From contig CAWJHU010000003.1 of NCBI GenBank assembly GCA_963842815.1, positions 91,683-155,682 on the forward strand: a DNA stretch of 64,000 nt, given 5' to 3'. Source of the stretch: Candidatus Nomurabacteria bacterium. GTDB taxonomy: Bacteria > Patescibacteriota > Minisyncoccia > Phycocordibacterales > UBA9973. This document shows, piece after piece, positions 2,279 to 64,000 of this stretch. Every line of letters starts with the position of its first letter. The stretch's first letter is position 1. The notes below the pieces were generated by a model that made no database searches, was not told the origin of the DNA, and was given only the letters and a program-made list of their open reading frames with translations. The position numbers and the translations under genes are program-made.

Positions 2279-6420
<4,142 letters not shown>

Positions 6421-7239
6421 TTGCCAGGAAGGTAATCCAGACGAAACAACAAGTCCCTGTCCACTATTTCCAATACCAAGTCGCGCAAAGTTACCGTTAC
6501 TGTTTCTATAAAAAATATCACCAGTTGCATCAGAACCGAGATTGAGAGCAAGACCTCCTGACGATATGCTTCCTGTAATGTTAAGCGCTCCGGAATTTAA
6601 AACAGGAATTTGATTGCCGGTAGGAGTTTGAGAAGGGATAAAACCACTGACTGTTTTTGAATTAAGCGCATAGGCGGCAGAAACAATTCTTTGACGCGGA
6701 CTAAGGGTTTCAAAAGAAGTTGCCGAAGCACAAGAGCCAGAAATAGAATTGGCAACATCAATATTTAAATAAACTTCATCAGCACTATTGAAATCAAAAT
6801 TAAGAGCATCCCCGCCGATTGATGTATCGCCAATATCTGCGCTAAGGACTCCATTTTTTACATTGACCGTCATTTTGGATGGAAGATTGGACGGCCATAA
6901 CCTTGTTCCGGCTGTTGCGCTATTATAGAAAGAAAATTTAAAACAATAATTGGTTCCGGAAGAACCGCCTAAAAGATTCCCTGATGAATCAAGTAAAATT
7001 CCTTGATGATGCAAAAGTGAAGGTGCGCCGGCGGCAGAAACAGTATTAAAAACTAAAATGGACACCCAAAAAAGCACCGCAAACAAGCGAGCGATATTAT
7101 TTTTACAAAAAAATCGTTGTGGTGTTTTTTTTATTATCAAATCTATTTTTTACAGTGGATAAATAAATCATACACTGTCTGTATATTATAGGGCAAAAAT
7201 ATATTGGAAGCAATCAAAGAAGGAACGCCGTGTGGAAAA

Positions 7240-30324: not shown

Positions 30325-31293
30325 TTATTTTAGTAATTGCGTAACCAACGCAACTATTTGGTCTTTCTTTTTAGGATCACTTTCGGCAACAAGAAGTGCA
30401 AGCGCAGTCAGGGTTGCGGGATTAATATTTCTAAATCCTTTTGTCTTTGTTTTTCTCAAAAACCATACAAAAGCAAAAGCGCCAGAGCGTTTATTCCCAT
30501 CTAAAAATGGATGCCCTTTGGCTATAAAATACAAAAGGTGCGCCGCTTTTTCTTCTATGGTTTTATAAAGCGGTTTGCCTCCGAATGTTTGCATTATATT
30601 TCCTACGATTCCTTCTATGCTTCCTTTTTCCCTCTCGGTTGCAAATAATTCCGTAGTCTCTTTTTTCTGTATTAGCTCTTTTTTTAAATTTAAAATTGCG
30701 GAAAATAACTCATCGCTTTTTAATTTTATATTTTTTTTATTAACGCCTTTTATTTTGAGCGTTTCTTTATCATAGGCATCAAGAGAAATCCAAGTACTGG
30801 CAAATTCCTTAACAAGGTCTAAAACCGCTCCGGGGTCAAAAGCAATATGTTCCGGCAGTAAATTTTGAACACTGGCGACAGTTTGCATAAAAGAATCGTA
30901 ATTTTGGGCTATTTGCCTGCGATTTATTGTATAACCCTTGGTTATATGTTCTCGCAAAGTTTTTGTCGCCCACTGTCTGAAAACTATAGCTATTTTTGAA
31001 TTTGTTCTATAACCAACCGATAAAATAACATCCAGATTATAATATTGAACCTGGTATGTTTTACCATCATTCGCAGTATGTGCAAATTTTGCACATACTG
31101 AATTTTCTTCAAGCTCTTTATCTTTTAATATATTTCTTATGTGTTTTGTTATTACCGAGCGCTCAACATCAAAAAGCTCTGAGACTTGGTTTTGTGTAGC
31201 CCATATTGTTTCATTCTTCATATCCCCGCGAAATTCTATCGCGCCATTTTTTGCTTGGTATATAATTATTTTATTATTGTTTATTCTTTTCAC
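30325..31293 (-). CDS. RhuM-family N-terminal domain fused to a Fic/Doc C-terminal domain
   Basis: N-terminus IIYQAKNGAIEFRGDMKNETIWATQNQVSELFDVERSVITKHIRNILKDKELEENSVCAKFAHTANDGKTYQVQYYNLDVILSVGYRTNSKIAIVFRQWATKTL is RhuM-like. C-terminus AKGHPFLDGNKRSGAFAF is the Fic/Doc HPFx(D/E)GN(G/K)R motif. Confidence 0.7.
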   Translation of the reverse strand: MKRINNNKIIIYQAKNGAIEFRGDMKNETIWATQNQVSELFDVERSVITKHIRNILKDKELEENSVCAKFAHTANDGKTYQVQYYNLDVILSVGYRTNSKIAIVFRQWATKTLREHITKGYTINRRQIAQNYDSFMQTVASVQNLLPEHIAFDPGAVLDLVKEFASTWISLDAYDKETLKIKGVNKKNIKLKSDELFSAILNLKKELIQKKETTELFATEREKGSIEGIVGNIMQTFGGKPLYKTIEEKAAHLLYFIAKGHPFLDGNKRSGAFAFVWFLRKTKTKGFRNINPATLTALALLVAESDPKKKDQIVALVTQLLK

Positions 31294-45021: not shown

Positions 45022-45094
45022 AGCCCATCACGGGTAGAGACCGAAGTCTCTCGTGTCAGTTTCCCGACACGGCGTATAAGGCGACCCCCTGATG
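45022..45094 (-). ncRNA. Candidate structured RNA element (73 nt): 7-bp closing helix enclosing hairpins, one with a UUCG tetraloop on the minus strand
   Basis: cccatca-cgggtaGAGACcgaaGTCTCtCGTGTCagtttcccGACACGgcgtataaggcgacccc-tgatggg. On the minus strand the first hairpin reads GAGAC-UUCG-GUCUC. Lies just 5' of the start of the minus-strand gene 44093..44995. Confidence 0.3.
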
Positions 45095-45418
45095 GGTTCT
45101 TTATTCCTTATACGACTTGTATTACCGTGCCTTAAAATATAGATATAAATCAATATAAATATATAAGTAAGGTTTAGGCTACTATATTTATTAAGTTATA
45201 TTTTAATGGTACAACTTCACAATGGAATTATCAATATAAAAATAAGATAAGAATAGTCGTAAATGTTTAAAATATTTGATAAATAAAAGCTCAATTTCGT
45301 AATTTGTGTATTTTTGATGGTATAAAAACCTATGTTTTATGGCTGTTTTTAAAATAAAGATAGTTATTCACATAATATATCGCCCTATTTTAGCGCTAGT
45401 GAATATAATCACTACACG

Positions 45419-61722: not shown

Positions 61723-62007
61723 TTACATTCCTCCCATTTTGTTCGCATCCATTGCTGGAGCGTCTACTTTACACTTGTGGCATTTACAGCCGAATATTTT
61801 CATAACAGCCGCAATGCCTACCAGCACATAAACTATTCCCTCCACCGTTGGAGAGAAACCCAAAATCATATTGACTACGTTCCAATTGCTTGAACTGCCC
61901 AAAAGCATACCCAAGCCGATTAGGCCCCAGTTTATGCCTCCAATGATTACCAGGATTTTGACAATCCAATGCACAGTGCAACCCCCTTTACCACAATTTT
62001 TACACAT
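61723..62007 (-). CDS. DUF378-family small membrane protein with N- and C-terminal Cys clusters
   Basis: IIGGINWGLIGLGMLLG ... VYVLVGIAAV is the DUF378 (YuzA-like) core. N-terminal CKNCGKGGC and C-terminal CKCHKC. Confidence 0.55.
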   Translation of the reverse strand: MCKNCGKGGCTVHWIVKILVIIGGINWGLIGLGMLLGSSSNWNVVNMILGFSPTVEGIVYVLVGIAAVMKIFGCKCHKCKVDAPAMDANKMGGM

Positions 62008-62156
62008 AATAATAAAGTTAGTTTATAATTCCACCCAAACGACTATTTAGGCGGGGTTAAATAATACCCTACAATTATACCATTTTCTAAATAGCACTTC
62101 AATGAAATGTCAACTTTATATAATTGACTATTAACTAAACAAATCAGCCAGATTGC

Positions 62157-62176
62157 ATCTACGCCATGGCGTAGAT
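62157..62176. repeat. Perfect 20-bp palindrome just 3' of the Cas2-like gene
   Basis: atctacgccatggcgtagat (self-complementary; CCATGG core). Confidence 0.85.
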
Positions 62177-62188
62177 TGGTCTATATAA

Positions 62189-62557
62189 TTAGGATTTTTC
62201 TAGATAAGATTTAGCTAACTTAAATGTTTTAAATTCTTTTTGTAGACCAATTCTCTTTAAGTAATCTAAAAAATCTTTCGGCAATGGTGAAGGACCAACC
62301 CAGACACTTTTTTGAATCATAATAAAATCAAAATTTTTGAGTTGACGACGAAACCAGTCTCTTTCCTTCTTCTTCACATGGGGAATATCATACATAAGAA
62401 GTAAATTTTTTGGTGCATCTTTTTGAAAATTAGAGATAAAAGAACGGAGATATTGACATTTAATAATTTTTTCTTTTTTCTCAGAATAATTAAAGTTTGG
62501 TAAACCTAAAAGATTTACGGATACACCTTTGTATTTTAATTTTTTTCTGGTAACCAT
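62189..62557 (-). CDS. Cas2-like fold protein (orphan; no cas1 or array in the window)
   Basis: NLLLMYDIPHVKKKERDWFRRQLKNFDFIMIQKSVWVGP follows the Cas2 pattern hhhhYD(I/V)......+R..hR+.L...G.+hQ.SV(F/W).. with the conserved Asp in beta1. A 45-aa N-terminal extension is atypical. Confidence 0.35.
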   Translation of the reverse strand: MVTRKKLKYKGVSVNLLGLPNFNYSEKKEKIIKCQYLRSFISNFQKDAPKNLLLMYDIPHVKKKERDWFRRQLKNFDFIMIQKSVWVGPSPLPKDFLDYLKRIGLQKEFKTFKLAKSYLEKS

Positions 62558-62570
62558 AATTTATATTATA

Positions 62571-62594
62571 CACTAAAAACATATCTACGCCATG
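62571..62594. repeat. Related imperfect palindrome just 5' of the Cas2-like gene
   Basis: atatctacgccatggctgagatat. Shares the 14-nt core atctacgccatggc with the downstream copy. Confidence 0.8.
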
Positions 62595-63188
62595 GCTGAG
62601 ATATGTTTTTGATTTTAAATAAAAAACTGCTGGCACTAATAAATATAGTACGCAGCAGTTAGATAATACAGGGTGGAAAAACTAGAAAGAGAAGAAACGG
62701 TCGGCAGAGCTACCTTATTCCTTCTTTATGTTTCTACTAGGAACCACAAGGGATCGAACCTCATCTTTTCCACTGTATATATAATATTACATACAGAGAC
62801 GAGCTAGGAAACACCACAGAGGTCTTAACCACATGGGGAAACCCCCTCTGAGATACACCCAAAATTAAAAGGTGTGGGTAATTTTAAGGTCAGCCGTTGA
62901 AACCCTTATTAGCCTCAACGATGCCTAAGTTTGTGTTGGCTCTCTATCCACCCAAATATATTCTTAACTTTACAAATTCTAAGATAGAGATTAATACTAA
63001 TCACCTAATTAGTCAATATTAGTCAAAGTAGTTCTTCAGCCGGGCAATTTTTTCGTGCTGGCGAAGTTTTTCGTGCACTTTGGCTTCAATCTGGCGAATG
63101 CGTTCGCGGGTCACTCCGAATTCTTCCCCCACCCTTTCCAGAGTATGTTGAATACCGTCCACCAACCCATAACGCATTTCCAGATATT

Positions 63189-64000
63189 TTACGTTTCTTT
63201 GGGGTTAAGTTCGTTCAAAACTTCGCGGATTTGGTCGGATAAAATTCTGCGGGAGGATTCCTGGTCCGGGCGCAAAATTTTATCATCCGGAATAAAGTTT
63301 TCCAGAGTTGATTTATCGTCATCGTCCCCCACCGGCTGTTCCAGAGAAATAGTTTCCTGGCTGATATTTTCAATGACGTGAATTTTTTCAACTGGAATGC
63401 CCATTTCGGTGGCAATCTCTTCGGCCAATGGTTCCCGGCCTAAATCTTGACTGAGTTTTCGGTACGTTTGTTTGTATTTGGAAATAGTTTCCACCATATG
63501 CACCGGAATGCGGATAGTTCTGGATTGGTCAGCCAGAGCGCGGGTAATGGATTGGCGAATCCACCAGGTGGCATAAGTGGAAAATTTATATCCCTTGGTC
63601 CAATCAAATTTTTCCACTGCCTTGAATAGTCCCAAATTCCCTTCCTGAATCAAATCCAAAAGGCTCAGATTGGCGCTTCTGCCCACATATTTTTTGGCGA
63701 TGGAAACCACCAAACGCAAATTGGCTCTGGCCAATAAATTTTTTGCTTCAACATCGCCCAATTCTATGCGCTTAGCAAGATCTTTTTCATCCACCGCATG
63801 AATGAGCGCATACTGCCCTATTTCTTTCAAATACATTTGAATGGAATCGTGAATGGTGGATTTATTCAAATCTTTATCGGTAATATCATTATCAAGATTA
63901 AGTAAATTTCCGCCTTCCAGCACATCAATACCAGCCACGGCAAATTTTTCATAAAGCTCGTCCAAAAAGAAAATATTGTTCTCAATGTCGGGAAAAGTTT
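63189..64000 (-). CDS. rpoD: RNA polymerase sigma-70 factor RpoD (C-terminal ~270 aa; gene continues past the window end)
   Basis: Region 2: [55 protein letters not shown]. Region 3 and region 4 (...[16 protein letters not shown]...[12 protein letters not shown]). The reading frame stays open to position 64000. Confidence 0.85.

Follow-up and report, generated by a model that had tools for sequence, protein, structure and literature searches.

The DNA analysed here, called the window below, is a stretch of 64,000 nt from Candidatus Nomurabacteria bacterium (assembly GCA_963842815.1, contig CAWJHU010000003.1, positions 91,683-155,682 of the forward strand). Between rpoD and a gene for a DUF378 membrane protein it carries a small gene for a 122-amino-acid protein with a Cas2-like fold, and this gene has a palindrome on each side (Table 1). 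The whole forms a cassette of about 455 bp in the order palindrome, -10 box, leaderless open reading frame (ORF), palindrome; the gene occurs only once in the window. The original prediction had described an orphan Cas2-like gene bracketed by a palindromic motif, which could be a toxin with operator sites or a miniature mobile unit. We compared the locus with 80 related loci fetched from GTDB species genomes of Paceibacteria, in the Candidate Phyla Radiation (CPR) of ultra-small bacteria.

The predicted protein begins with a beta-hairpin of the form YKGxSVNxxGLP, continues with a basic linker and stops after the Cas2-like domain (residues 50-115); it has no C-terminal ligand-binding domain and no paa operon context. 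Only PaaX_M and Cas2 profiles matched it, and PHROGs gave nothing meaningful. The Pfam family PaaX_M (PF20803, 'PaaX central Cas2-like domain') scored 50.4 bits over residues 53-115 (cut-off 24 bits) and outscored CRISPR_Cas2 (PF09827), which reached 30.7 bits over residues 52-103 (cut-off 23.8). The NCBIfam model TIGR01573 (cas2) was barely over its cut-off (25.2 vs 24.5), and the PaaX equivalog TIGR02277 scored 15.3 against a cut-off of 264.55. Cas2 profiles align to the protein over only about half of their length, the first half, and the PADLOC Cas2 profiles cover the first half of its domain. No VapD-specific profile matched. In an AlphaFold2 model built on a 77-sequence alignment, residues 52-113 form the succession beta1-alpha1-beta2-beta3-alpha2-beta4 with a predicted local distance difference test score (pLDDT) above 93, and the best folds found by Foldseek in the PDB were Cas2 proteins and VapD (3ui3). 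The protein has both the Asp of the beta1 'YDI' motif and the 'QxSVW' motif of beta2, and this Asp (D57) is nearly invariant across the family. Profiles over their cut-offs, model and fold search thus all bear out the Cas2-like fold that had been read from the sequence. No recombinase chemistry of the DDE, HUH-Tyr, Ser or Tyr type is conserved; indeed, no Tyr or His, and no His pair, is invariant in the wide family.

A CRISPR-remnant reading was rejected. As originally noted, neither an array nor cas1 was found in the window: Tandem Repeats Finder gave no CRISPR-like array, and the ten scanned ORFs of 271-348 amino acids had other Pfam assignments or none. Moreover, a survey of 106 neighbour proteins at the 80 loci, in which the 25 most frequent of 112 Pfam families were inspected, showed no Cas family among those of the immediate neighbours; no recombinase was among these 25 families either, distal host recombinases not having been looked for. 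The window protein belongs to the PaaX central-domain branch of the Cas2 fold and is unrelated to CRISPR adaptation.

At least 1,867 relatives of the short form (clusters at 90% identity), 70-85% identical to the window protein, were found in Nomurabacteria and other Paceibacterota. The family is confined to CPR/Paceibacteria, and a scan of viral contigs returned no relatives. Its members are annotated as hypothetical, 'Cas2' or 'PaaX'. A 21-sequence family alignment has more than 50 invariant columns, and the ratio of nonsynonymous to synonymous substitution rates of the gene (0.09-0.19) indicates purifying selection. An exhaustive HMMER search over 50%-identity representatives extended the family to 1,149 clusters, mostly of about 160 amino acids, with the Cas2-like domain at the C-terminus and weak winged helix-turn-helix (wHTH) or PaaX matches in the N-terminal half. 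One of these longer relatives was modelled with a pLDDT of 91.6 as a helix, a beta-hairpin, a recognition helix, a wing, a linker helix and a Cas2 domain, and its best full-length PDB match was E. coli PaaX (8a39). Judging from this model, the longer relatives consist of a wHTH and a Cas2-like domain, like the first two domains of PaaX. Compared with these long forms, the window protein is without the first helix and about 35 residues corresponding to the recognition helix and wing; it retains the invariant YKGxxVNxFGLP hairpin, the basic linker and part of the linker helix. It would be a truncated member of a CPR-wide 'mini-PaaX' family that joins a wHTH-derived N-terminus to a Cas2-like dimerisation module, a proposal that shares the even odds of the overall interpretation discussed below. 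The fold and the PaaX-type domain are already known; our literature searches found no description of the truncated CPR family, of its palindrome-bracketed leaderless cassette or of its cassette-like distribution.

Table 1. Features at the window locus, with the hybrid-centre palindromes of three related loci
Feature	Position	Strand	Remarks
Proposed mini-PaaX gene (122-amino-acid Cas2-fold protein)	62189..62557	-	ORF; Pfam/NCBIfam, AlphaFold2, Foldseek
Downstream perfect 20-bp palindrome ATCTACGCCATGGCGTAGAT	62157..62176		12 nt past the stop codon; proposed second binding site and 3' border
Upstream 36-nt palindrome	62575..62610		Proposed operator over the -35 position; centre 35.5 bp before ATG
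Imperfect core 20-mer ATCTACGCCATGGCTGAGAT in the 36-nt palindrome	62583-62602		One half-site is the TCAGC variant
TATAAT -10 box	62565..62570	-	7 nt before ATG; would imply a leaderless or near-leaderless mRNA; read from sequence
Insertion relative to the empty rpoD-DUF378 junction	62119..63018	-	900 bp; variable cargo, cassette and 38-nt tail; alignment to empty L162 and others
Variable 'cargo' slot	62611..63018	-	407-nt non-coding stretch between rpoD and cassette; fold z-score -4.19
Flanking rpoD, 3' part	63019..63965	-	Left edge of the insertion at its stop codon
Flanking DUF378 membrane-protein gene	61723..62007	-	Promoter-like site 62074-62102, outside the insertion
Palindromes of hybrid-centre loci	L003:3905-3918; L005:3378-3391; L006:2275-2288

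Palindromes and promoter

The 20-bp palindrome is made of two ATCTACGC half-sites around a 4-bp centre, and the upstream copy is flanked by A- and T-runs (AAAAACAT...ATGTTTTT). Both palindromes of the original prediction are real, although its distance of 14 nt between the upstream one and the start codon was slightly off: the 36-nt palindrome ends 17 nt before the ATG, and its core lies 25 nt from it. The exact 14-mer core occurs at two sites only in the 64 kb, those that bracket the gene, and the window holds two perfect 20-bp palindromes against a mean of 0.11 in shuffled sequences. None of this kind was found elsewhere in the window or in 484 kb of related loci, except beside the gene. Both fold as stable hairpins of single-stranded DNA, the downstream one without a loop and without a T-run, and the ordinary terminators of the window differ from them in appearance. 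A scan for sigma-70 promoters and terminators detected neither a -35/-10 pair for the gene nor a terminator at the downstream palindrome. Rfam (gathering thresholds over the whole window; E<=10 within 61950-63100) returned no RNA family at the palindromes or in the 407-nt spacer.

This layout recurs at the loci of relatives. In 58 of 72 loci the upstream palindrome has its centre 34.5-36.5 bp ahead of the ATG, and a TATAAT-like hexamer (at least five of six positions) is present in 77 of 81, ending 6-7 nt before the start codon in 61. Given this last distance, the ATG would stand at the expected transcription start, which points to a leaderless mRNA, and the palindrome would cover the -35 position. 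Most related loci also have a matching downstream palindrome, whose centre is 9.5 to about 80 nt beyond the stop codon; in ten loci the flank includes the stop codon itself (TAA). A locus with the long form of the protein (L171) has the same layout as the short-form loci. The change of the half-site from TACGC to TCAGC, seen in the window, is recurrent in several clades. Four loci (L015, L028, L058 and L079) have an extra palindrome 100-150 nt upstream of the usual upstream one with no gene between them, which may be a remnant of lost cargo. In three loci (L033, L042 and L058), a third cognate palindrome is located inside the gene (at about nt 87-110), where it encodes ...EVRHGEL... in the variable linker of AAGTTCGC-flavour proteins.

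Protein and palindrome are paired across the family. The half-sites come in several flavours (ATCT, ATAT/ATTT, AAGT), namely ATCTACGC, AT[AT]TACGC, AAGTTCGC and some rarer ones, and the flavour tracks both the protein tree and the residues at about 30-45, just before the Cas2 domain, which read KRxYLxSF, RKRNFYHTAF or KYHQYHYF. Eleven genomes have two copies of the cassette, and most of these carry two different flavours. Moreover, the two palindromes of one locus evolve in concert, and their sequence follows the protein clade. Upstream and downstream 24-mers of the same locus agree at 21.5 of their 24 positions; for permuted pairs of one flavour the figure is 19.8, and none of 2000 permutations reached the observed agreement. 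Rare variants are common to the upstream and downstream copies of one locus. The 4-bp centre, CATG or TATA, may freely differ from one copy of a locus to the other and thus behaves as a spacer. No excess of G-T pairs was seen among the palindrome mismatches; a constraint at the level of DNA rather than RNA is therefore favoured. The relative orientation of the two copies is mixed, with 54 direct and 58 inverted matches at informative positions.

A discrete unit at many sites

At the rpoD-DUF378 junction, the filled state of the window can be compared with four relatives in which the site is empty (L162, L163, L165 and L166). Their aligned rpoD protein is 93-99% identical and they have neither the Cas2-like gene nor a palindrome; three have a gap of 76-113 nt and the fourth a reversed DsbA-like gene. 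When the window is aligned to the closest of these empty sites, the 900-bp insertion begins directly behind the rpoD stop codon. Its edges carry a possible 10-bp imperfect repeat (TAATATTGAC, TAAAGTTGAC), but between genomes that differ by 14-25% no clear target-site duplication could be recognised. A second junction, rpsG-fusA, is filled by cassettes from at least three protein clades and is empty in two metagenomic relatives (S7 protein 87-90% identical, gaps of 10-15 nt, no palindrome) that are nested among filled genomes. The tight empty junctions look ancestral and the filled state derived. At L040 (3395-3877) and other rpsG-fusA loci, a small ORF (77-153 amino acids, no Pfam match) often lies between the downstream palindrome and fusA, with its own promoter-like site and terminator.

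The limits of the unit are seen most directly in one genome with two copies (L061 and L066), which are 91% identical over 479 bp, from the outer edge of one palindrome to the outer edge of the other, with no homology beyond; the upstream palindrome is flipped between them. Across the 80 loci, more than 30 housekeeping contexts are occupied, with immediate neighbours that include S7, EF-G, SMC, FtsZ, topoisomerase, Pol III alpha, MetRS, ribosome recycling factor and gatCAB. Synteny is kept within each context, and no conserved partner gene or regulon was found across these loci. It is this coincidence of homology breaks with palindromes, together with the empty sites, the many contexts and the lack of a conserved regulon, that gives the unit the look of a selfish cassette.

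The DNA next to the cassette is variable. The 407-nt stretch on the rpoD side has a strong predicted RNA structure (z-score -4.19) and contains a terminal hairpin followed by a T-run (62621-62658) and a T-loop-like GGTTCGATCCC; it matched no Rfam family, tRNA or tmRNA (transfer-messenger RNA; none by ARAGORN). In two other filled genomes, the same cassette is separated from rpoD by unrelated DNA, namely a NUDIX gene (L164) and a 135-amino-acid ORF (L001). That the 407-nt stretch is a decayed form of either was rejected, as tblastn found no similarity. At six loci, an accessory gene beside the Cas2-like gene is bracketed by a further palindrome, in the order palindrome, gene, palindrome, Cas2-like gene, palindrome. 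These accessory genes (c24, c46 and a uridine-kinase-like gene) are mutually unrelated and stand on either side of the Cas2-like gene. The idea that c24 carries palindromes wherever it occurs was rejected, its homologues elsewhere being without them. In three of the three-palindrome loci (L003, L005 and L006), one copy has a centre hexamer, CCATAG or CTATGG, that is a hybrid of the two types present in the same locus, CCATGG and CTATAG; it would result from a crossover at the centre and equally from a single point mutation.

Interpretation and its alternatives

Overall, our results suggest, with a probability of about one half, that the gene encodes a DNA-binding protein which represses itself and whose sites delimit a cassette that was mobile long ago; the cassette is unconnected with CRISPR adaptation. 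A dimer of the protein would bind the 20-bp palindrome through the two half-sites, with the Cas2-like domain as dimerisation module, as in PaaX. PaaX itself combines a wHTH with a dimerisation motif and acts as a repressor at its own promoter, where it sterically hinders RNA polymerase (PMC9493321). As the upstream site of the cassette lies where the -35 element of the gene should be, its occupation might be expected to exclude RNA polymerase, which would result in negative autoregulation, as for PaaX at its Px promoter. The downstream site might be a second site of the same protein and the 3' border of the unit, probably acting as an auxiliary operator or as a roadblock that insulates the cassette from neighbouring housekeeping operons. 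At the window locus, the cassette may have entered the rpoD-DUF378 junction together with the variable cargo segment. Since copies of the family have entered dozens of intergenic sites across Paceibacteria, we infer that the cassette is a selfish unit that moves rarely, or formerly did so, and whose ends are the sites bound by its protein. Cognate binding and autorepression are the best supported parts of this interpretation, given the fixed -35 geometry, the clade-specific cores, the concerted evolution and the precedent of PaaX.

Several observations weigh against it. The N-terminal helix, recognition helix and wing are missing from the window protein, which leaves its way of reading DNA unexplained, and its N-terminal 45 residues are poorly defined in the model except for the beta-hairpin at residues 7-14. 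Perfectly symmetric but non-conserved extensions of the arms (4-12 bp) are present in 54% of the upstream and 34% of the downstream palindromes (null for the upstream ones, 0.5%); such extensions agree better with the formation of hairpins or cruciforms, or with templated homogenisation, than with a simple operator. Furthermore, the downstream site keeps no fixed distance to any other feature, and helical phasing in the spacing of the two sites is unconvincing (best p about 0.05, uncorrected). As to mobility, all 24 contigs that carry one rpoD allele (one species) share the filled arrangement without polymorphism, the most similar pair of paralogues differs by a synonymous divergence (dS) of 0.28, and no genome in the scan has more than two copies.

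A first alternative, possible but unlikely in our opinion, is that the unit is an autonomous miniature element resembling an insertion sequence (IS), in which the Cas2-like protein is a nuclease or recombinase that recognises the terminal palindromes, possibly extruded as hairpins as in IS200/IS605 or in the REP-associated tyrosine transposases (RAYT; REP, repetitive extragenic palindromic), and autoregulation is a side effect of binding at the left end. The unit boundaries coincide with the palindromes, the insertion contexts are many and unrelated, independent clades occupy one intergenic site, and the empty sites are without palindrome. The arrangement of end, promoter, single ORF and end, the near invariance of D57, the non-conserved arm extensions with their stable single-stranded hairpins and the hybrid centres of three-palindrome loci also agree with it. 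However, neither DDE, HUH, Ser nor Tyr recombinase motifs are conserved, and to our knowledge no recombinase activity is known for any Cas2-fold protein. Low copy number, fixity among the 24 contigs, the lack of a clear target-site duplication, the inconsistent relative orientation of the end copies and the absence of relatives from the viral contigs speak against it as well. The miniature mobile unit of the original prediction has held in part: the unit is discrete, bounded by palindromes, patchy in its presence and found at many sites, but it is low in copy number, stable within a species and devoid of recognisable recombinase chemistry. A minimal mobile element of about 0.45 kb, in which a PaaX-like factor of Cas2 fold recognises and perhaps processes hairpin-capable ends and captures neighbouring genes there, is a tentative proposal that we also consider improbable, and there is a real but minority chance that the cassette is a new kind of mobile element.

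It is rather unlikely that the protein is an ordinary host transcription factor with two operators, inherited vertically, for which ancient duplications, repeated loss and the gain of accessory genes at permissive sites would mimic mobility. Strong purifying selection, conserved synteny within each context, the stable configuration of the 24 contigs and a promoter/operator geometry typical of an autorepressor are what such a regulator would show. The more than 30 housekeeping contexts without conserved regulon or neighbour are not, and it would have to account for rpsG-fusA and rpoD-DUF378 junctions whose empty state looks ancestral, for one site filled by different clades and for a duplicated segment that ends exactly at both palindromes.

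More doubtful is an integron-like capture platform, in which the palindromes would be sites for a Xer-like tyrosine recombinase of the host and the Cas2-like protein an accessory factor marking these sites. Inverted arms around a centre of 4-6 bp have a geometry like that of recombinase core sites. The six palindrome-separated arrays with mutually unrelated accessory genes, the c24 homologues that elsewhere are without palindromes, the upstream cargo that differs between the window, L001 and L164 and the hybrid centres could all be explained in this way. Against this, no recombinase appeared among the inspected families of immediate neighbours, several cargo genes have no outer palindrome, one point mutation suffices for a hybrid centre, and arrays never exceed three sites.

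Of the toxin with operators that was first suggested, the upstream operator is well supported by its position in 58 of 72 loci; a VapD- or Cas2-type endoribonuclease toxin in a toxin-antitoxin or defence gene is nevertheless most improbable, as the resemblance of the fold to VapD (3ui3) as well as to Cas2 and the partial PADLOC matches are opposed by the lack of a conserved partner gene and of a VapD profile match, by a gene that is single in its unit and keeps 70-85% identity across species, by PaaX_M as the best profile and by relatives that carry a wHTH. We give equally little credit to palindromes that are merely terminators or RNA hairpins of neighbouring genes, unlinked to the protein: despite the A- and T-runs around the upstream copy and the hairpin folding of both, the cores are conserved and specific to the protein clade, stand at a fixed distance from the -10 box and ATG, show no wobble-type variation and are missing from empty sites, and the downstream copy, without loop or T-run, looks unlike the ordinary terminators of the window.

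Some other features of the window were noted. In rpoD, at about 63170-63190 (minus strand), two single-base insertions 9 nt apart create an in-frame stop codon; in a contig that is 99.6% identical (L081), rpoD is intact and encodes 404 amino acids, and the interruption is probably an assembly error rather than a sign of a pseudogene. A LOOT RNA (Rfam RF03000) was found at 45036-45180 (minus strand) with 61.8 bits, over its gathering score. Long tandem repeats at 4352-6413 (minus strand), with periods of 9, 18, 81, 90, 135 and 198 nt, lie inside the ORFs 2279-5668 and 5665-7140; judging from their base period of 9 nt, they may encode collagen-like G-X-Y repeats of a very large protein. The ORF 30328-31293 (minus strand) combines a RhuM-family domain with a Fic/DOC domain.

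Our analysis implies that, in many cases, an 'orphan Cas2' annotated in a CPR genome is no remnant of a CRISPR system. The family also appears, from sequence comparison, to be an unusually clean natural case of a DNA-binding protein that co-evolves with its sites, with orthogonal flavours that sometimes occur in one genome and that could be used for studying or engineering specificity. In addition, the cassette may be a low-activity selfish unit that marks flexible-genome hot spots between core genes, in a group of organisms with very few known mobile elements. Any action of the protein on the palindromic ends would bear on the origin of the Cas1-Cas2 partnership. Indeed, if the reading as a minimal mobile element were true, it would point to a pre-CRISPR role of the Cas2 fold as a DNA-end-binding protein of mobile elements, and would also explain how a Cas2-like module might have come to stand beside a Cas1 casposase.

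Comparison with known systems

The likeness of the cassette to VapD/VapX is limited to the modelled fold, which resembles 3ui3, and no conserved antitoxin partner was found at the 80 loci. Integron (attC) arrays share with six of our loci the presence of imperfectly palindromic sites between unrelated accessory genes. They differ in that no integrase is among the commonest neighbour families here, that there are at most three sites and that the constant member is the Cas2-like gene.

The cassette also resembles IS with a promoter in the left end, REP/RAYT and IS200/IS605. A single small ORF lies between cognate palindromes, the left copy overlapping the promoter; as with these elements, each protein clade has its own palindrome flavour, and the unit is discrete and patchy. 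Features expected of an IS were found in the defined ends (L061/L066), in the two copies of eleven genomes and in the empty sites, without polymorphism in the 24 contigs. The cassette protein, however, is without the HUH or DDE chemistry of IS and IS200/IS605, its copy number is very low, and the unit is stable within a species. REP/RAYT palindromes are dispersed genome-wide, in contrast to those of the cassette, which are absent away from the gene in the 64-kb window and the 484 kb of related loci.

With Cas2, the window protein shares the ferredoxin-like beta-alpha-beta-beta-alpha-beta fold, with profiles just over their cut-offs. It differs from Cas2 by an extra N-terminal extension of DNA-binding type and by a context in which the window searches found no cas1 or CRISPR array.

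PaaX, which represses the phenylacetate catabolon (Pfam PaaX, PaaX_M and PaaX_C; PDB 8a39 and 3l09), is one of the closest known systems. Its central Cas2-like domain is the best profile match of the window protein, and its first two domains, wHTH and dimerisation, are reproduced by the long relatives. The window protein differs by the absence of the C-terminal ligand-binding domain, of paa genes nearby, and of the H1 helix, recognition helix and wing, which the relatives of about 160 amino acids have. The PaaX operator, TGATTC-N27-GAATCA, is also unlike the compact 20-bp palindrome of the cassette. Nevertheless, autorepression by PaaX works through a palindromic operator at which RNA polymerase is blocked, and a parallel mechanism is what we propose for the cassette; in contrast to PaaX, the mini-PaaX gene has sites on both sides and behaves as a cassette.

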